DNA of 27,055 bases from an uncultured Candidatus Saccharibacteria bacterium. GTDB taxonomy: Bacteria > Patescibacteriota > Minisyncoccia > UBA6257 > UBA11618. The DNA is taken from positions 1 to 27,055 of the forward strand of contig CAYHSQ010000001.1 in assembly GCA_964359365.1 (NCBI GenBank), written 5' to 3'. The translations under genes and the position numbers were made by a program. The notes beneath the pieces are model-generated. The model did not search any database. It was not told where the DNA came from and saw only the letters and a program-made list of their open reading frames with translations. Positions 1-20,027 of this stretch are shown in pieces. Position 1 is the first letter of the stretch. Each line of letters opens with the position of its first letter.

Positions 1-1532
1 CAGTTCATGGGGGCGGTGTTCCAGATTTTTTGTAAAACTGAACGAGTGTCTTTGCAGTTGGTAAAAGATTTTAGCATTGAGAAGATCGCGGGTGGGAGCT
101 TGCAGGATGGAGGAGTGCCTTTGGAGCCGGCATCTTTGTATGCTTTGTATTTATCTAGACAGTTTTTAATTTCGAGGGAGGTTTCGAATAATTTTTGGCC
201 GACGTAGTCTGGATGATTGTTGAGAAGGAGGTCGGGAATGGTTTGGTTGCCAAAAAGAGCAACGGTTGAAATGCCCGCGACGGTTTTTTCGGCGAGAGAG
301 CCTTCAAAGCCGTAGCCGACAATGATTGATTGAGCAACGCCGGCGATGGCGGCGGCATAGACGGTAAAGGTAACCGCACGACCGCCTAGTTGAATGGTTC
401 GATTGATAACTTTGCCAGCTTTGGTGGCTTCTTCGGCAGCTTCTTTGATGGCTTGTTTGAGAGCGTCTTGGTCGGTGACGCTTAATTCTTTAATGGTATT
501 CTGTAAAGCAATTTCTTCAGGAGAGATTGTTGGTTTGGGGCAGGCTTCCCCGGTGGGAGTTTGAGGTGGGGTTATAGTAGGGGGAGTTCTTGGGACTAAG
601 GCGCTTTTTCTTGGGCATAGAAAGTTTCTTAATTTTCCCCAAATTCCCTTGCCATCTTTATGAGCTTCAAATCTTTTATAAACGGCTTCAAATAAATCAT
701 CAAAGTTTTTGTAACCTAGGATTTTACTTAACTCATTAGCGTTTACATTTTCTGAACCAGCTTTTTTAAGCAAATTAGCGAGATCGATTTTTTCTTGCAC
801 AGCGGCCGCACTTTCTTTTTCTAGCATATCTTCCCCAGTTAAGATGGCTAGAGCGTAATCAAAACCAGTGTAGTCTGTGGTGGTGGTTAGCGAGCTATAT
901 AAATAAGATTTAAGAGAACTTCTTGTTACGCCTTTATCACCAGCTAAACCAACGATAATATTATTTAAATGGCTGTCGGTGTATTTGGAGCAGTTACACA
1001 CGGCATTTTCTGCATGTTGAGGAATTAACTCTGGCAGGAAGCCTGATCTACCGCTGTCACGGTTTACGCAGTGAACTAATTCGTGAGCCAAACTAGCTTT
1101 TGCTGGGCCACTTTTTTGATTTCTGCCAATTCTAATAGTGTCGCAGCTTTTGAAAGCGTCATCGGCTATACTAAAACTACCGCCTTGGCCTTCGGTTAAA
1201 GATATTTTTAATTTTTCGGGCAGGAATTTTTTACCTGTTAATTTTTCTATTTCGTCTTTCAATGAAAGATAGTCTTTTATGACTGTTATGGCTTGATTGA
1301 TATTGATGGAGGGGTTTCTTGGATTGAAGTTGATTTCTAGATAAGGTTCTAAAATTGTAATTAAGCCATAATCACCGTCCGTAACTACGGTGACATTTTT
1401 TAGACCGGTAGCCTTCATGATTTGATTGGCTAGTTCGATGTTGTTTGTTAGCTCTGGAAAAGCTAACACTGGCTGCCAAAAAAAGATGAAAAATGAGACG
1501 ATGAAAAAAAGTGGCAAGAGGAACTTGGCCAT
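1..1532 (-). CDS. Secreted zincin-like metalloprotease-domain protein, partial (runs off the left edge, >=510 aa)
   Basis: Absent from the ORF track. Manual translation from ATG at 1532 is stop-free to the window edge. It begins with the signal peptide MAKFLLPLFFIVSFFIFFWQPVLA, has AHELVH (HExxH, nt 1071-1085) with a downstream Glu (QHAENAV), a Pro/Thr linker, a helical segment and a hydrophobic Ala/Gly-rich stretch. Confidence 0.85.
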   Translation of the reverse strand, partial: MAKFLLPLFFIVSFFIFFWQPVLAFPELTNNIELANQIMKATGLKNVTVVTDGDYGLITILEPYLEINFNPRNPSININQAITVIKDYLSLKDEIEKLTGKKFLPEKLKISLTEGQGGSFSIADDAFKSCDTIRIGRNQKSGPAKASLAHELVHCVNRDSGRSGFLPELIPQHAENAVCNCSKYTDSHLNNIIVGLAGDKGVTRSSLKSYLYSSLTTTTDYTGFDYALAILTGEDMLEKESAAAVQEKIDLANLLKKAGSENVNANELSKILGYKNFDDLFEAVYKRFEAHKDGKGIWGKLRNFLCPRKSALVPRTPPTITPPQTPTGEACPKPTISPEEIALQNTIKELSVTDQDALKQAIKEAAEEATKAGKVINRTIQLGGRAVTFTVYAAAIAGVAQSIIVGYGFEGSLAEKTVAGISTVALFGNQTIPDLLLNNHPDYVGQKLFETSLEIKNCLDKYKAYKDAGSKGTPPSCKLPPAIFSMLKSFTNCKDTRSVLQKIWNTAPMN

Positions 1533-1538
1533 TTTTTT

Positions 1539-1547
1539 ATTTTAGCA
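1539..1547 (-). promoter_or_regulatory. Extended -10 (TGcTAAAAT) 6 nt before the ATG; probable leaderless promoter
   Basis: Minus strand reads TGCTAAAAT-aaaaaa-ATG, with no Shine-Dalgarno sequence. Confidence 0.5.
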
Positions 1548-1581
1548 TTTTAGCAGGGGGATTATTAGTATTGATAATGAA

Positions 1582-1613
1582 CTGGATCCCCGGGTCAAGC
1601 CCGAGGATGACAG
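1582..1613. repeat. REP-like palindromic element (minus strand GTCATCCTCGGGCTTGACCCGGGGATCCAG)
   Basis: GC-rich hairpin in an AT-rich intergenic region. It resembles the GTCAT(T/C)CC...GG(G/A)ATCCAG class of dispersed repeats (dRS3-like); recognised by pattern only. Confidence 0.6.
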
Positions 1614-1666
1614 ACTGTGGGAGGTGACAGAATATTGGAAACGCGCTAAGATCAAGGCACTTTTTT

Positions 1667-2233
1667 ATGAAAGACAGGATTGTGTTTGATATTGAAACGA
1701 AAAATACTTTTGCGGATGTGGGCGGGCAGGAGAATATTGATAAGCTCGACATGTCGGTGACGTGTGCTTATTCTTATAACGAAAATAAATATTATACTTT
1801 TTGGGAGTCGGATTTGGAGGCCTTGGGGAAGATGTTGCAAGATGCATCTGTCGTGATTGGGTTTGCGATTAATCGGTTTGATTTACCGGTGCTCGCAAAA
1901 TATTTTAAATTTAACATTGATAAGGTGCCGAGAATCGATTTGCTCGAAGAAATCGAGCTAGCTTTTGGGAGCAGAATTGGGCTCGGGATTGTGGCGGAGA
2001 CGACTTTGGGGATTGGGAAGAGTGGGCATGGGCTGGATGCGATTGAATATTGGGAAACAAAGAATTTTGAAGCATTGGAAAAATATTGTTTACAGGATGT
2101 AAAGGTGACGAAGGAGCTTTATGATTTTATTTTGAAGAATGAGTACGTGCTGATTCCAAAGAGATATACTAATGAAATTATCAAGGTGCCGGTAGTGATT
2201 AAGCCTTTGGAGATTCCGTTGAGTTTGTTTTAA
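1667..2233 (+). CDS. DEDDy 3'-5' exonuclease, RNase H-like fold (YprB/RNase_H_2-like)
   Basis: ExoI motif VFDIET, ExoII motif GFAINRFD, ExoIII motif YCLQD; 188 aa. Confidence 0.85.
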   Translation: MKDRIVFDIETKNTFADVGGQENIDKLDMSVTCAYSYNENKYYTFWESDLEALGKMLQDASVVIGFAINRFDLPVLAKYFKFNIDKVPRIDLLEEIELAFGSRIGLGIVAETTLGIGKSGHGLDAIEYWETKNFEALEKYCLQDVKVTKELYDFILKNEYVLIPKRYTNEIIKVPVVIKPLEIPLSLF

Positions 2234-2238
2234 AAAAC

Positions 2239-2259
2239 AAAACCCCTTTCGGGGTTTTT
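2239..2259. terminator. Bidirectional intrinsic terminator
   Basis: AAAACCCC-tttc-GGGGTTTT between convergent genes. Confidence 0.75.
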
Positions 2260-2273
2260 GATAATTGTACTTT

Positions 2274-2984
2274 TTATTTTCTTCTCATTGCCATGTGAGT
2301 GGCGGGGATGATGTCGAATAAGAAATCGTATAAGAAGTGAACGAGGATTGCTATTGGGAGGCCGAATTTGAACATGATCCAGAAGAGGAACATGCCGCCA
2401 AACCAACTGTTTACCCAGCCGAAAAATCCTTGATATTTGTGTCCATCTCTAAAGAAGGTATTGGTAGCGATTATCGAAGCTCCAACTGCCCAGCTAGAGC
2501 TATGAAAGATATATGGTTCTAGAGCTTTGAACGTTGCCCAGTTTGCAATTGGTCCAACTAAGTGCATGTGGAACCATTCGGTGATGCCGAAGCCAAGAAA
2601 GCCGAAGAAGCAGTAGTTAGCAATTTGTACTGAAACAATGTTCGACATGAAAAAGAGCCATCTAAAGGCTATTTCTTCGGTAACTCCTGCAAAGAGGCTG
2701 TGCAATGTTCCTCCAATTAAGAATTCGTGGACCTCTGGGTCTCGGCGACGCCTTGGGCCCATAGATAGTGCGGCGAGAGTTGCGAGGGCGGTTCCCCAGA
2801 GGAGAAGCGGCCAAGAACCAATCAACCAATCAATCATCGCCCCTTTAACTTTCCAAAGTTCGAAAAATTTGAATGGTACGGCCTGAGGCCAAAAGTGCAT
2901 AATGATTGGTAATACGATGATGCTTCCCAATAATTTGTTCCAATACTTACTCCACCATTCTCTCGTTTCGTTTTCAGCAGACAT
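2274..2984 (-). CDS. CPBP family (CAAX/Abi) intramembrane glutamic protease
   Basis: Motifs EEIAFR, FFRDGH and HFLYD, with several TM helices. Start moved to ATG 2984 because GGAGG lies 5 nt upstream (2990-2994). Confidence 0.85.
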   Translation of the reverse strand: MSAENETREWWSKYWNKLLGSIIVLPIIMHFWPQAVPFKFFELWKVKGAMIDWLIGSWPLLLWGTALATLAALSMGPRRRRDPEVHEFLIGGTLHSLFAGVTEEIAFRWLFFMSNIVSVQIANYCFFGFLGFGITEWFHMHLVGPIANWATFKALEPYIFHSSSWAVGASIIATNTFFRDGHKYQGFFGWVNSWFGGMFLFWIMFKFGLPIAILVHFLYDFLFDIIPATHMAMRRK

Positions 2985-3102
2985 GGGGGCCTCCACACTA
3001 TGTTAGGGGTCGGGTTTTTCAAAGGGCCACTTTTCGTATATTGACAGATATATTCATATAAGTCAATAGTATTTAAGATGATGATTTTTTAATTGGGCAA
3101 GG

Positions 3103-15197: not shown

Positions 15198-15953
15198 ATG
15201 TTTCAGATTGGTCAGGTGTATATTCCTCACAAGAATTTAATAATTAAGAGTATTTTAGTGGCTTTTTTTTGGTATCAATACGCTGTTTTTGGAGGATTAT
15301 TTTGGTTTTTGGGGTGGCTTTTAGTGGTTGGTTATGGCTTTTTTAGGCCTAAATTAAAGTTTTCACCTCAATTAATCTCTTTTATTGTTTGGTTTTTAAG
15401 TGCTTTTTTGGCTGCTAACTATGATTTTTGGCCATTTGTTTTGCGGTATTTGAGTTTGGTTTTGGGGGCGATTTTCTTTGTGATTTTGATTTTGCATGAT
15501 GAGGTTTTGGAGGATCCTGGTATTTCTAGGAAATTTGAGACTGGGAAGATTTTGGCCTTGTTTTATCTAATTTTATTAGGTTTTTTTAGTATTAATTGGG
15601 CTAGTTTTTATGTTTGGAAGTGGTTTTTGACCGCTATTTTATTAGGTTTTTTGTGGTTTGAGTGGTTATTGTGCGAAAAAACCACAGAATCTTTTTTGAA
15701 ACCTTTAGTGGCCAGTTTGGCGATAGGATTGTTTTCGGCAGAAATGCTTGTGGTTTTGAGCTGGCTACCCTTAGGGAGTTTGGCTTTGGCTAATTTTGCT
15801 TGGATTTTTGAGGTTTTGAGCGGGGATTTATTGATTAGCTATTGGCATAAAAACCTTGATTTTAAAGGTGTTTTTAGGGATATCTGCTTATTTTTAGCCT
15901 TATCTTTGGTGATTTTATTGACGGCTAGCTGGGGGAGATTGGGGGCGATGTAA
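15198..15953 (+). CDS. Multi-pass membrane protein (possibly DUF5656-like)
   Basis: About 8 hydrophobic helices; GGAGG SD before ATG 15198. The family guess is from memory only. Confidence 0.7.
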   Translation: MFQIGQVYIPHKNLIIKSILVAFFWYQYAVFGGLFWFLGWLLVVGYGFFRPKLKFSPQLISFIVWFLSAFLAANYDFWPFVLRYLSLVLGAIFFVILILHDEVLEDPGISRKFETGKILALFYLILLGFFSINWASFYVWKWFLTAILLGFLWFEWLLCEKTTESFLKPLVASLAIGLFSAEMLVVLSWLPLGSLALANFAWIFEVLSGDLLISYWHKNLDFKGVFRDICLFLALSLVILLTASWGRLGAM

Positions 15954-16120
15954 CAAAACAATTTGTTTTCACGTTATCCTTTGTAGAACTCCCAAAAAGT
16001 TTGTTTTTCTTTCGTTTAGCTGATCTTCGGGGAAAAGGCTGATTTTTTTACTAAAAATCTAGGTTTTATAAGGTTTTTGGTATAAAATAGTGGTTTGAGA
16101 GGGATTTGTGTCCTTCTGGA

Positions 16121-16149
16121 TTGACTTTTTCCATCAATTCGGCTATAAT
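16121..16149 (+). promoter_or_regulatory. Near-consensus sigma70 promoter
   Basis: TTGACT-17 nt-TATAAT; predicted TSS about 16156. Confidence 0.8.
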
Positions 16150-16155
16150 AGACAG

Positions 16156-16270
16156 AATAACAAATTGAATATCACTTGTTTGGTGTGAGGCCAAAGCAAG
16201 ACAGTAGTCATCCCTAAAGGATGGCGCTCAAGCTTGTTTTTACTCACTCCGAATCAATTTCGGAGTTTTT
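16156..16270 (+). ncRNA. Candidate structured cis-regulatory RNA or small RNA (unassigned family)
   Basis: Starts at the predicted TSS. Predicted three-way junction: P1 16159-16168/16228-16238, P2 16175-16200, P3 16207-16225. It ends in a terminator. Confidence 0.5.
16246..16270 (+). terminator. Intrinsic terminator inside the 5' leader of the S-layer-like gene
   Basis: ACTCCGAA-tcaat-TTCGGAGT followed by TTTTGTTTGTT. Confidence 0.75.
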
Positions 16271-16398
16271 GTTTGTTATTAGCAGTTATCAATCTTACTT
16301 TCATTGATTTCGCGAGGAATCATGGTCGATGATAAGACGATGACTTGGCATGAAGTAAATAATATAAAAGTAAATTTGTCGTTTTGAATCATTTTACA

Positions 16399-19300
16399 AT
16401 GAAAAAAACAATTTCTAAGATTACGTCCATTGCGCTTACTGCTTCAACAGTAGCTTGGATTGCTTCTGCTTCTTTTGCTCCTTTGGCTTTTGCTGAAGGT
16501 ACAGCTGAAGTGAGTCAATTACAGGCCTTGATTGCGCAATTGACTTCTCAATTATCTACGCTACAAGGTGGTGCAACAACTACCACTGCGATGACTGGTT
16601 CTTCTATGTGGCCAGCTGGTATTCCAGCCGGTTTTCGTTTCACTAAGACCCTCACTCTTGGTGCTCGATCTGAAGAAGCTACTAATTTGCAGAGGTTTTT
16701 AAATGCTGTTAATCCAGCTTTAGCTTTACCAACCACAGGTTATTTTGGTCCTATGACTAAGAAAGCTGTGATGTGGTATCAGGATGCTAATGCGTCTGAC
16801 GTATTAGCTCCAGCCGGTTTGTCTAAGAGCACAGGTTTCTGGGGTTCCTTAAGCAGAGCGAAGGCCAATGCGACCTTAGCTTCTTGGGAAATGCCAGTTC
16901 CTACAACTCCTAGCACGACCACTACAACTGTTCCAACTACAACTACAACCACCACCACAACTACTGGTAGTTCTACCCCAGTGGGTCAGACTTCTACTGT
17001 TGATGGCTTGATGGTTTCTTTGGATGCTAGAACTCCAGTTTCTTCTAATGTTCCTAAGGGTGCCGCAGGTATTCCTTTCTTGAGCATTTCAGTTTCTGGT
17101 AACGGTACTCTAAATGCTTTGACATTTAAGAGAACTGGTTTGGGTTCCTCCGCTGACTTCGCTACCGTCAACTTATATGATGGTGGTTACAGATTAACTT
17201 CTGGTAGAAGCGTGAACTCCACTACTAACGAAGTTTCCTTTACTGGCTTAAACTGGAAGATTATGGGTTCTAAGGTTTTGACCTTGGTAGCCGATATCTC
17301 TTCTTCTGTTTCCTCTGGTAACATTGACGCCTTCAATTTGGTGGCTGTTAATGGCACAGTCCTCGCGATGCCTATCAATGGTAACTCGATGGCTTTTGCT
17401 GGTTCTACCGTAGGTGGTATTACCGTCACTATGACTGGTGATGGTTCTGATAATGGTTCTATCTCTAACCCAACAGTGGGTCAGACTAGTGCTCAATTAG
17501 GTGAATTAAAGTTGCAAGCCAACTCCGTTGAAGATTTATGGGTGAAGAGAATAGTTTTGTACAATGTTGGTACAATGAACTCTTCTAACATTAGTAACTT
17601 AATGTTGAAGCAAGCTGGTACTTTAGTGGCTAAGTCCGCTGGTACTGCTGGCCGAGACTTATTTGTCTTCGACTTCGACCAACCTTATAGCTTGTTGAAG
17701 GGTCAGCAAAGGACTTTCCAGGTTTACGGTGATATCAGTGCTTTAGCTAGAGCGGCTGAAACTGTTAAGTTCTCCATAGACAACACATCTGATGTGTTTG
17801 CTACTGGTGCTACTTATGGTTACGGTGCGGCTGTAACTAACAGCGCTTCTTCTTCAGTGGCCAACGTATTAACTTTGCGTGGTGCTGAAGTAACTTTGAG
17901 CTTCAATGGTCCTATTACTAGGGACATCGCTCAGAGAGCCCAAAATGTAACTTTATTTGATTTCTCTATTGCTTCTAAGAACAATATTGAAGTGAAGAAG
18001 TTAAACTTTGTGGTTGATTTGACTAACATGAACACAACTAGCGCAGAAGGTTTGGACAACTTTAAGGTTGTCGATGCTACCACTGGTGCGGCTGTGACCT
18101 CTTCTGTTGATTTGCAACACGGTGTTGCGACAACTGTGGGTGGTGCGGCTTTGACTCCAAACGGTAACAGCTCTAACACCTTCTCTTTCAACGACTCGAT
18201 TAACGTCGCAGCCGGTGAAACTAGAAAGTTCTTGGTAACTGCTAACGTTAACTCTTTAGTGGCTGGTGGTAACGAGACTGCTAAGGTAACCCTTGGTACT
18301 TTCGGATCTACTGACATTAAGAACTTGGATAACAATCAATTCGTAACCGTTTCTACAGATTTAGTGCCTAACAGCACGATCGTGGGTAACGTACAATCCG
18401 TTAAGACCGTTGGTTTGACCGTTTCTTTAAACGCCAGCCCAGCTTCTCACACGATTGTTAAGGGTTCTGCAAATGAACCTTTGTTAGGTTTGAACTTCCA
18501 GGCGACTAATGGTGAAGTTAGAATCAATAATATGACTCTAACCGCCGATGCTTCTACTGGTACCGATGCTCAATTAAGAAATGACTTGAGAACTCTTGGT
18601 ATCTATGGATCCAATGGTAGCTTAGTGGGTAATTCCACCAAGCAAAACTTGACCTCCTCTTCCGCTGTATCTGTCGCCACTTTTAACAACTTAAACTTAG
18701 TTGTTCCTAATGGTCAGACTATTACTGTTTGGGTAAAGGCGGATCAAATTTCGACCGATGCGACTACCTCCAATGTTTACTTTGTTTACTTAGCCGATAT
18801 GTCTGCTGATATTTCAGCGACTGACGTTGATGGTAACAATTTGACATTGTCTGGTTCCGTTAACGCCACTCCAACTACTGCTGTGACTGTTAACGCTCCT
18901 CTTATCCAGGTTGTAGCTGTGAACGATCAAGACACCGAAGCTGCTATTGTGGCTGCTAATGGTGAAAGATTGTTAGCAAAGTTTGATTTCTTTGCTACTA
19001 ACTCTGATTCTCAGGTCAATAAGTTGCAAGTTGGTTTGGATGATGACAGCACCGCTGGCGACGATCCAGCTGCTACTCCTTTAGCTGCTTTAACAAAGGC
19101 GGTTAGAGAAATCAGATTGTACTCTGGCGATACTTTGATTGCGACTGGTATTCCTGCCGCTTCTGGCACTGATGCTGGTACTTTCAGATTCGAAAATGCT
19201 AGTGGTTTGTTCACTGTCCCTGCTAATCAAACAAAGCAGATTCAGGTCCGAGGCTTGTTAGGTGATATCACCGGTGTAACTGGTAGCGCGACTACTGGTA

Positions 19301-19965
19301 CTTCGATTTTCGCCAAGATAGCTTCTGCTAACTTTGAATCTGTTTCTGGAACTACAAAGTTAACTACGTTAACTAACACTCCAGTAATTGGCAGCTTGAA
19401 GAGAATGTACCGAACTATTCCTACTGTTACAGTATCTAATCCTTCTTCTTCCGTGCTCACCGTTGGTGAAAACGAAGTGTTGAAGTTTACGATTGCGGCT
19501 GATCAAAATGGTGACTTAGATGTTTCTAAGGTAGCCTTCAATGTTTCAGCTTCTACTAGCGTAACTATAGGTGATACTGAGACTACAGATTTGAAGGTCA
19601 GAACTTCTTCTGGTGATGTGTCTTTGAACACTACCGATTCAAACATTAGCGCCACTACTGGTACTATTGTTGTAGGTGTGATCTTTACCACCCCAGAAAG
19701 AATTGCTGCCGGCACTTCTAAGACTTACAGCTTGTACTTGAACGTTACCGCTGTTCCTGCTGGTTCTGGTTCTCTCTCTGCGAGAGTGGCTCGAGCCGAA
19801 ACGGACGTAGTAACTCCAGCGGCTGTGTCTGGTCTTTATGCGGCTAATAGCTTTGTATGGAGTGATCGTGGCGTACAGCCTCACACAACCAGCACTGCTG
19901 ATTGGCACAACGGTTTCTATGTGAAGACTTTACCTTCGTCTACAAAGGCGTTGAGCAAGTCCTAA
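16399..19965 (+). CDS. Large S-layer-like surface protein with PG-binding domain and tandem beta-sandwich repeats (1188 aa)
   Basis: Signal peptide ending LAFA; short coiled coil; PG_binding_1-like segment (LQRFLN...TGYFGPMTKKAVMWYQ); Thr-rich linker; about 6 Thr/Ser/Asn/Val-rich beta repeats; codon usage unlike neighbours. Confidence 0.85.
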   Translation: MKKTISKITSIALTASTVAWIASASFAPLAFAEGTAEVSQLQALIAQLTSQLSTLQGGATTTTAMTGSSMWPAGIPAGFRFTKTLTLGARSEEATNLQRFLNAVNPALALPTTGYFGPMTKKAVMWYQDANASDVLAPAGLSKSTGFWGSLSRAKANATLASWEMPVPTTPSTTTTTVPTTTTTTTTTTGSSTPVGQTSTVDGLMVSLDARTPVSSNVPKGAAGIPFLSISVSGNGTLNALTFKRTGLGSSADFATVNLYDGGYRLTSGRSVNSTTNEVSFTGLNWKIMGSKVLTLVADISSSVSSGNIDAFNLVAVNGTVLAMPINGNSMAFAGSTVGGITVTMTGDGSDNGSISNPTVGQTSAQLGELKLQANSVEDLWVKRIVLYNVGTMNSSNISNLMLKQAGTLVAKSAGTAGRDLFVFDFDQPYSLLKGQQRTFQVYGDISALARAAETVKFSIDNTSDVFATGATYGYGAAVTNSASSSVANVLTLRGAEVTLSFNGPITRDIAQRAQNVTLFDFSIASKNNIEVKKLNFVVDLTNMNTTSAEGLDNFKVVDATTGAAVTSSVDLQHGVATTVGGAALTPNGNSSNTFSFNDSINVAAGETRKFLVTANVNSLVAGGNETAKVTLGTFGSTDIKNLDNNQFVTVSTDLVPNSTIVGNVQSVKTVGLTVSLNASPASHTIVKGSANEPLLGLNFQATNGEVRINNMTLTADASTGTDAQLRNDLRTLGIYGSNGSLVGNSTKQNLTSSSAVSVATFNNLNLVVPNGQTITVWVKADQISTDATTSNVYFVYLADMSADISATDVDGNNLTLSGSVNATPTTAVTVNAPLIQVVAVNDQDTEAAIVAANGERLLAKFDFFATNSDSQVNKLQVGLDDDSTAGDDPAATPLAALTKAVREIRLYSGDTLIATGIPAASGTDAGTFRFENASGLFTVPANQTKQIQVRGLLGDITGVTGSATTGTSIFAKIASANFESVSGTTKLTTLTNTPVIGSLKRMYRTIPTVTVSNPSSSVLTVGENEVLKFTIAADQNGDLDVSKVAFNVSASTSVTIGDTETTDLKVRTSSGDVSLNTTDSNISATTGTIVVGVIFTTPERIAAGTSKTYSLYLNVTAVPAGSGSLSARVARAETDVVTPAAVSGLYAANSFVWSDRGVQPHTTSTADWHNGFYVKTLPSSTKALSKS
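16900..16965 (+). repeat. Low-complexity ACN codon run encoding a poly-Thr linker
   Basis: PTTPSTTTTTVPTTTTTTTTTTG. Confidence 0.8.
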
Positions 19966-19990
19966 ACTAGGATACTGTTACTGCATAAGT

Positions 19991-20027
19991 ACGAAGGGAG
20001 CCCCCGAAAGGGGGCTCTTTTCGTTTT
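19991..20027 (+). terminator. Strong intrinsic terminator
   Basis: GAGCCCCC-GAAA-GGGGGCTC followed by TTTT. Confidence 0.9.

Follow-up and report, generated by a model that had tools for sequence, protein, structure and literature searches.

Results

Organization of the leader upstream of the surface-protein gene

The window, by which we mean the whole stretch of 27,055 nucleotides that was analysed, comes from a source genome of 734 kb that is approximately 90% complete. Between positions 16121 and 19965 it carries a promoter, a structured leader with an internal terminator, and the gene of a surface protein, with the following features:

16121..16149, + strand: sigma-70-type promoter, TTGACT-17-TATAAT (consensus scan, 11/12 matches)
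16175..16200, + strand: P2 hairpin, the proposed anti-antiterminator (covariation and folds)
16207..16225, + strand: P3 hairpin, a lineage-specific insert that caps the alternative rod (pair-preserving changes against the sister species G001)
16233..16241, + strand: CUUGUUUUU, alternative pairing strand for the P2 3' arm (16193-16200), used in the read-through fold (MFE and consensus folds)
16243..16257, + strand: antiterminator, 3' strand (columns 27-40 of the alignment pair with 94-108)
16246..16277, + strand: intrinsic terminator, ACUCCGAA / UUCGGAGU with loop UCAAU, then a U-rich tail (consensus scan)
16278..16398, + strand: downstream leader with a GGUCGAU box (16324-16330) and GUCGU (16378-16382) (box recurrence in relatives)
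16399..19965, + strand: surface (S-layer-like) protein gene, the proposed target of control (ORF, domains and orthologues)

From the promoter, transcription is predicted to start at approximately 16156. The arms of P2 are CTTGTTTGG on the 5' side (16175-16183) and CCAAAGCAAG on the 3' side (16191-16200, with one bulged G), and they enclose the loop TGTGAGG (16184-16190; U-GUGAGG in the RNA). P3 is formed by GTCATCC (16207-16213) and GGATGGC (16219-16225) around the loop CTAAA. The terminator consists of an 8-bp stem (16246-16266) followed by TTTTTGTTTG, and is located 132 nt 5' of the ATG at 16399. No Shine-Dalgarno-like sequence was found in the downstream leader from 16278 to 16398.

The sequence CUCAC (16243-16247) was complementary to GUGAG in the P2 loop (16185-16189), and overlapped the terminator stem by just 2 nt, the first two bases of the stem. 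In the same strand (16243-16257), CCGAAUCAA pairs with the P2 5' arm at 16176-16183, and CUUGUUUUU is also the U-run that precedes the strand. A sequence-only reading of this DNA had described a consensus promoter, the P2 and P3 hairpins, a strong terminator about 130 nt before the ATG, and a GTGAG/CTCAC complementarity overlapping the base of the terminator. All of these were recovered at the positions given above, and the complementarity turned out to be the core conserved feature of the leader.

The region 16150-16275 folded more stably than all of 200 shuffled sequences (z = -4.45). Two rival folds were computed for it, one containing P2, P3 and the terminator, and the other a long imperfect rod. 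The rod is built from two paired segments, 16176-16189 with 16243-16257 and 16193-16200 with 16233-16240, and is capped by P3; it takes up the entire 5' arm of the terminator. This read-through rod was the MFE structure of the whole leader in the window (z = -3.7).

The gene 3' of the leader encodes a secreted protein of 1188 aa. It carries a signal peptide, a segment resembling a coiled coil (LQALIAQL), a PG_binding_1 domain, a stalk rich in Thr, and long repeats rich in beta structure. Its orthologues in other genera of the family showed 50-55% identity. S-layers have been predicted in Patescibacteria by a 2024 preprint (10.1101/2024.05.28.596244). The surface protein is probably the most abundant protein of these cells and their interface with host and environment. 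Separately, the GC skew of the + strand was approximately +0.3 to +0.5 over most of the window (lower in 1-3000) and approximately 0 inside the surface-protein gene (16001-20000 compared with the rest); this drop fits the distinct codon usage of a very highly expressed gene.

Conservation and distribution of the leader

The sister species G001 differed from the source by 4 substitutions in the 176 nt of 16134-16309, and by 16 in the 134 nt of 16000-16133. Three of the four leader substitutions fell in P3 and kept its pairing, with C-G changed to U-A at 16209/16223 and U-A changed to U-G at 16211/16221. A BLAST search with the leader DNA in 40 relatives found the sister species only, and wider relatives were reached by synteny and covariance models. 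The results showed a unit of promoter, hairpin and terminator directly 5' of the orthologous surface gene, and co-oriented with it, in approximately 80 Parcubacteria genomes of one GTDB order. Within the family, the region upstream of the orthologue began with a strong promoter, a hairpin with an (A/U)GUGAGG loop and a variable middle; the loop-complementary strand, the terminator and more conserved leader sequence followed.

The covariance model R1 found exactly one strong copy per genome in 14 of the 17 family genomes (15 of 17 after a later find), and also matched other families of the order. The rebuilt model R2, which is over-fitted, matched 33 of 151 genomes of the order and none of the 146 genomes that represented the class's other orders. 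With R3, a stem-agnostic model of the hairpin, the order limit was the same, and the sole match outside lay inside a coding region and had a different loop. Every credible match was the single copy in its genome and lay 5' of, and co-oriented with, a surface-protein gene. The genes after these matches all started alike, with a signal peptide and an LQAQI..LLAQI segment.

For a check independent of the RNA, 80 loci were selected by protein similarity alone from named assemblies, including Wolfe-, Colwell-, Jorgensen- and Liptonbacteria and other Parcubacteria. R2 matched 32 of these loci, all on the strand of the gene, mostly 200-450 nt upstream and in a few cases 500-700 nt upstream. A simple search for GUGAGG flanked by a stem raised this number to approximately 46 of the 80, so the models under-count. 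The Kaiser- and Zambryskibacteria-type loci among the 80 were without the motif. As far as searched, the leader is confined to one Parcubacteria order.

A terminator was present at the equivalent place in every related leader inspected (81 relatives), and the GC-rich stem with 5-8 U was kept in all copies. The U-run before the antiterminator strand occurred in the window's own family (f1) and in some other lineages; it was not general among the leaders, and was rejected as a universal pause signal.

Some loci carried additional genes. In two of them (L067 in G064 and L072 in G048), an extra ORF of approximately 90 aa lay between the leader and the surface-protein gene, co-oriented with both. 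In four others (L012, L015, L016 and L018, from G002, G007, G011 and G008, respectively), the gene just 5' of the leader encoded a small protein whose C terminus has a DeoR-like winged helix (..RTLRYDLQKL..). No such DeoR-like wHTH protein was found in the source genome using a query from those four genera.

The P2 stem covaries around a fixed loop

The P2 stem was assessed in a gap-free alignment of 57 distinct sequences, in which 97.5% of cells were paired, a percentage that is inflated by sequences that were partly chosen for the stem or found by P2-containing models. Six of the seven pairs were changed on both sides. The number of doubly changed cells was 71, compared with 21 ± 3 in shuffles, and sliding the partner destroyed the pairing. 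The stems were as varied as GGUUCAG, GGCUUAG, GCUUCG, GUAUUUGG, CUUUCAG and others, around a loop that was GUGAGG in 56 of the 57 sequences. The one variant loop, GUGAGA, faces UCUCGC. The only invariant unpaired bases were the loop bases that pair with the terminator arm. Covariation among orthologues, for which the sequence-only reading had proposed to look, was thus found in the P2 stem, in a leader that is conserved together with the orthologous gene.

The middle part of the leader ranged from nothing (in G002) to approximately 200 nt. P3 was absent in G002, and relatives had other hairpins of variable size in its place. The three-way junction of the sequence-only reading is one possible drawing of the leader that did not carry over to relatives, where P3 is absent or replaced and the closing helix is not conserved. 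A closing helix of 16156-16164 with 16272-16280 was rejected; by eye it was present in the window and perhaps in G006, and not in other genera.

The P2 loop is complementary to the terminator arm

Complementarity between the P2 loop and a strand forming or abutting the 5' arm of the terminator was found in 37 model-found and 44 protein-selected leaders. The typical pairing was GUGAGGCU with AGCCUCGC, in which CUCGC is the terminator arm. The median duplex energy was -10.7 kcal/mol in the model-found leaders (84% at <= -9 kcal/mol) and -11.6 kcal/mol in the protein-selected leaders (91% at <= -9 kcal/mol), compared with -4.5 kcal/mol at 408 terminator-like sites elsewhere in the source genome (4.4% at <= -9 kcal/mol). 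The register of the pairing shifted while complementarity was kept, the strand reading CUCAC in the window, GGCCUC in sister genera, and AGCCUCGC elsewhere.

We also folded the nascent transcripts up to the terminator loop, and the MFE structure contained the antiterminator in 35 of the 37 leaders. Since this nascent fold has the terminator arm on the P2 loop and arm region, read-through is the predicted thermodynamic default.

In the window, where the loop complement reaches only 2 nt into the terminator stem, antitermination would rely on extension of the pairing into the P2 5' arm. An extended antiterminator of this kind was present in the window, G009, G008/G012 and G015/G010. The extension was not significantly species-matched, with 146 of 2000 permutations doing equally well, and pairing of the P2 5' arm with the terminator arm or loop was rejected as a general covarying helix. 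If P2 stays intact, the geometry that we infer for the loop pairing is that of an H-type pseudoknot. The fixed loop could alternatively be explained by a need to pair with two RNA partners, the other being a CCUCAC element that lies further down in many other families.

Promoter use and reading frames in the leader

A promoter with at least 10 of 12 consensus matches was present at the same relative place 5' of P2 in 20 of the 37 leaders. A separate promoter for the coding sequence downstream of the terminator, which the sequence-only reading had named as evidence that would count against it, was found at this threshold in only 1 of the 37 leaders, in a space that is longer and AT-rich, by a scan for the sigma-70-type consensus. 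Since no second promoter was detectable before the gene, its expression appears to need read-through of the terminator.

An ATG at 16221 opens a frame of 28 codons that runs through the terminator. This ATG was lost in the sister species (GGGUAGCG), and an ATG frame reaching the terminator was found in only 12 of the 37 leaders, at unrelated positions and with unrelated lengths. Gating by a leader peptide or mini-ORF was rejected on these results.

Conserved elements between terminator and start codon

The downstream leader showed a GGUCGR box between the terminator and the start codon in 36 of the 37 model-found and all 44 protein-selected leaders (80/81), at approximately 20 times the genome rate. 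GGUCGR was never found on the opposite strand, and GGUCGR or GUCGW recurred one to four times per leader. In the window, GGUCGAU (16324-16330) lies in the loop of AUCAU/AUGAU. In family f1, inspection by eye placed GGUCGR at the 3' side of a short hairpin loop with stems that differ between genera. Two explanations of these boxes, GUCGA as an ECF-type -10 element and GGUCGR as a complement of the terminator arm, were rejected by eye for inconsistent spacing and partners.

A CCUCAY element, complementary to the P2 loop and mostly located in hairpin loops, was present in the downstream leader of 12 of the 37 and 40 of the 44 leaders. It was found in 0 of 16 leaders of the window's own family, the window included. 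The CCUCAC element is therefore an add-on of other lineages and not part of the window locus. Examples of CCUCAC as a perfect complement of the P2 loop outside family f1 are L049, L058, L054 and L065.

Comparison with known RNA families and candidate binding proteins

A search against Rfam 15 gave no family at gathering score in the window, none that was meaningful at E<=10 on 15950-16420, and none at E<=1 on 20 related loci. The sole matches were at chance level (MALAT1, snoR24, mir-316 and a tmRNA fragment). None of the families that had been suggested from the sequence (purine, c-di-GMP-I, c-di-AMP/ydaO and lysM-TM7) was matched. The suggested likeness to the L2/L3 loops of purine riboswitches did not hold, with RF00167 unmatched even at E<=10 and with P3 and the junction varying or missing among relatives. 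The PyrR binding site (RF00515) was not matched even at E<=10, and 6S RNA was rejected for want of a match.

A divergent SRP RNA (RF00169 / RF01854) was rejected as well; no SRP RNA or Ffh M domain was found in the source genome and 40 relatives, and the search for an SRP54-type GTPase (Ffh/FtsY) gave only P-loop fragments in 41 genomes of the order. That Parcubacteria have lost SRP has been reported before (Nelson and Stegen, 2015, PMC4508563). Full-text literature searches found no description of the leader. The leader constitutes a new RNA family, and the mechanism proposed for it is of a known type.

Proteins that bind comparable leaders were searched for in the source genome. PyrR was absent from this approximately 90% complete genome, in which the only PF00156 match was a ribose-phosphate diphosphokinase (PRPP synthetase). 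CAT_RBD and CsrA were not found there, and the ANTAR search gave no match, with the control also unmatched. A search of this genome for the NusG N-terminal domain (PF02357) was also negative, probably through incomplete assembly.

In two lineages, the terminators of unrelated genes shared the loop and closing pairs CAG-NGUGAGG-CUG, followed by a U-run. These were located at L038 (G011:C41:43-115, - strand), L039 (G007:C9:5697-5769) and L059 (G127:C4:71756-71815, - strand). The genes beside them were mutually unrelated, one with a Kre9/KNH Ig-like domain and the other with a mechanosensitive-channel helix, and gave no clue to a regulator. Chance is an unlikely source of the shared terminator loops, which hint at a trans factor that reads the GUGAGG hairpin.

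Discussion

A proposed terminator/antiterminator switch ahead of the surface-protein gene

We propose that the 5' leader of the surface-protein mRNA is probably a cis-acting terminator/antiterminator switch in which P2 would serve as the anti-antiterminator. The sequence-only reading had suggested an uncharacterised attenuator on the main surface protein. This is supported by the conservation of the unit in cis, the alternative between terminator and antiterminator, and the lack of a detectable second promoter. The arrangement typical of intrinsic-terminator attenuators, in which a promoter is followed by a GC-rich hairpin with a U-tract before the gene starts, was found in the window and in 81 relatives, together with a conserved alternative pairing that excludes the terminator.

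RNA polymerase would start at approximately 16156 from the near-consensus promoter. In the OFF state, P2 (16175-16200) and the terminator (16246-16266, with its U-tract) would form and a short RNA of approximately 115-120 nt would be released. In the ON state, the loop GUGAG, and in the window also the P2 5' arm, would pair with 16243-16257, so that the terminator would be blocked and transcription would continue into the gene. Since the ON pairing would remove the terminator 5' arm and P2 is transcribed first, P2 would act as an anti-antiterminator. Folding predictions give the ON state the greater stability, which would suit a very highly expressed gene. That termination occurs and that it is regulated we infer here, as we do the nature of the effector.

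The invariant loop on a covarying stem suggests a trans factor that reads the loop of the P2 hairpin. By the logic of PyrR attenuators, a factor that holds P2 closed or masks its loop would give more termination. We favour a hairpin-binding protein over a metabolite because outside the loop no unpaired base is conserved, the gene is structural, and the same loop occurs on ordinary terminators of unrelated genes. Among the candidate effectors we therefore tentatively place a protein first. A small ligand stabilising the loop-arm pseudoknot seems unlikely, as does a purely kinetic switch or a switch with no effector, and the prospects of a trans RNA as effector appear poor.

Alternative explanations

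Two alternatives are a riboswitch and a separate sRNA. In a metabolite or ion riboswitch, a ligand would stabilise the H-type pseudoknot formed by P2 and the pairing of GUGAGG with the terminator arm, and would thereby prevent termination. The proposed pseudoknot geometry would fit (a stem of 7 bp, a single nt ahead of the loop strand, loop pairing over 6-8 bp, and a long variable linker), the element is strongly conserved, and the pseudoknot strand overlaps the terminator, as it does in small pseudoknot riboswitches. However, there were no conserved unpaired pocket positions beyond the pairing bases of the loop, and the flanks and linker vary or carry inserts of 100-200 nt. The element is also single copy per genome and tied to a structural protein gene rather than to a transporter or enzyme, it has no Rfam aptamer match, and in two lineages its loop recurs on plain terminator hairpins that belong to unrelated genes, all of which makes a riboswitch quite unlikely. 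An independent sRNA gene, or an sRNA derived from the leader, would instead make the product of approximately 115 nt functional, with the GUGAGG loop pairing with targets in trans. A strong promoter and a strong terminator make the unit self-contained, sRNA seed regions typically combine a covarying stem with an invariant loop, and the complementary CCUCAC is found in the downstream leader of many other families (12/37 and 40/44). We nevertheless think this rather unlikely, with CCUCAY missing from all 16 leaders of the window's own family, the unit co-oriented with and adjoining the same gene in every case, that gene without a detectable promoter of its own, and the unit's own terminator as the best conserved partner of the loop. 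Strict co-orientation, together with the lack of a detectable promoter downstream, argues for a primary role in cis, and action as an sRNA could be a second role of the terminated product.

Two further alternatives are a constitutive leader and another type of antitermination. The leader could be a constitutive structured 5' UTR that stabilises or processes an abundant mRNA, its terminator-like hairpin being structural or leaky. S-layer mRNAs commonly have long structured leaders, predictions rank the read-through fold as the most stable, and conserved elements such as the GGUCGR box reach as far as the start codon. However, the canonical GC-rich stem with 5-8 U in all copies is hard to explain if termination is unwanted, and a triad of fixed-loop anti-antiterminator, antiterminator and terminator exceeds the needs of stability alone, so that we hold this explanation to be improbable. 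Ribosome-mediated attenuation by a leader peptide could be proposed from the 28-codon frame at 16221, and a put/EAR-like processive antitermination RNA belongs to the same highly improbable group. Against the frame stand the loss of its ATG in the sister species and the unrelated positions and lengths of such frames in the 12 of 37 leaders that have one. The direct complementarity between loop and terminator arm points to antitermination by RNA-RNA pairing, not by modification of the polymerase.

Comparison with known attenuators and S-layer leaders

The closest resemblance of the proposed switch is to known attenuators, and it differs from each of them. In the pyr attenuators of Bacillus (RF00515), which are controlled by PyrR, a 5' hairpin with a purine-rich loop is likewise the anti-antiterminator, the antiterminator is more stable, and a terminator precedes the gene. 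The same topology of anti-antiterminator, antiterminator and terminator was found here, as a shared type of mechanism and not as family membership. The PyrR binding hairpin of pyr attenuators has a loop that contains GAGAGG, compared with CAG-NGUGAGG-CUG here. Unlike those attenuators, the leader has no RF00515 match and its target is a surface protein and not a pyr gene, there is no PyrR in the source genome, and the antiterminator strand is the hairpin loop itself.

The preQ1-I, fluoride and ZTP riboswitches are alike in having a loop that pairs with a downstream strand overlapping the terminator, and in their small core and variable linker. They differ from the leader, which has no sequence or model match to them, has no conserved pocket nucleotides, and precedes a gene for a structural protein. 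The RAT elements of LicT-SacY (BglG family) are similar in that a protein, putative here, decides whether a leader hairpin or an overlapping terminator forms. There, however, the protein-bound hairpin overlaps and prevents the terminator, whereas P2 is without terminator overlap and its stabilisation should favour termination; no CAT_RBD was found in the source genome.

The mRNAs of Lactobacillus slpA and Thermus slpA have long structured 5' UTRs, and resemble the present case in the length of the leader, the very strong promoter and the high expression of a surface-layer gene. To our knowledge, descriptions of these S-layer leaders assign them a stabilising or protein-binding role and mention no intrinsic terminator and antiterminator within them.

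Implications for CPR bacteria

CPR bacteria are ultra-small and host-dependent and encode very few regulators, and almost nothing is known of their gene regulation. As a broader reading that we regard as doubtful when taken whole, the GUGAGG hairpin could be where a sensor docks, the sensor being a protein or, on the loop-arm pseudoknot, a small ligand. The leader would then be the first regulatory RNA class specific to CPR/Parcubacteria, coupling the synthesis of the surface layer to the state of the cell or host, and the terminated product of approximately 115 nt could double as a trans RNA that kisses the CCUCAC loop in the mRNA leaders of most other families.

A widely conserved, order-specific RNA switch on what is probably the most abundant protein would offer a compact handle of approximately 120 nt that is workable without culturing. 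The description of the leader would add an Rfam family and improve the annotation of hundreds of Parcubacteria genomes, in which the unit could otherwise be mistaken for an orphan sRNA or plain intergenic space. The effector, once found, could reveal what these cells sense.
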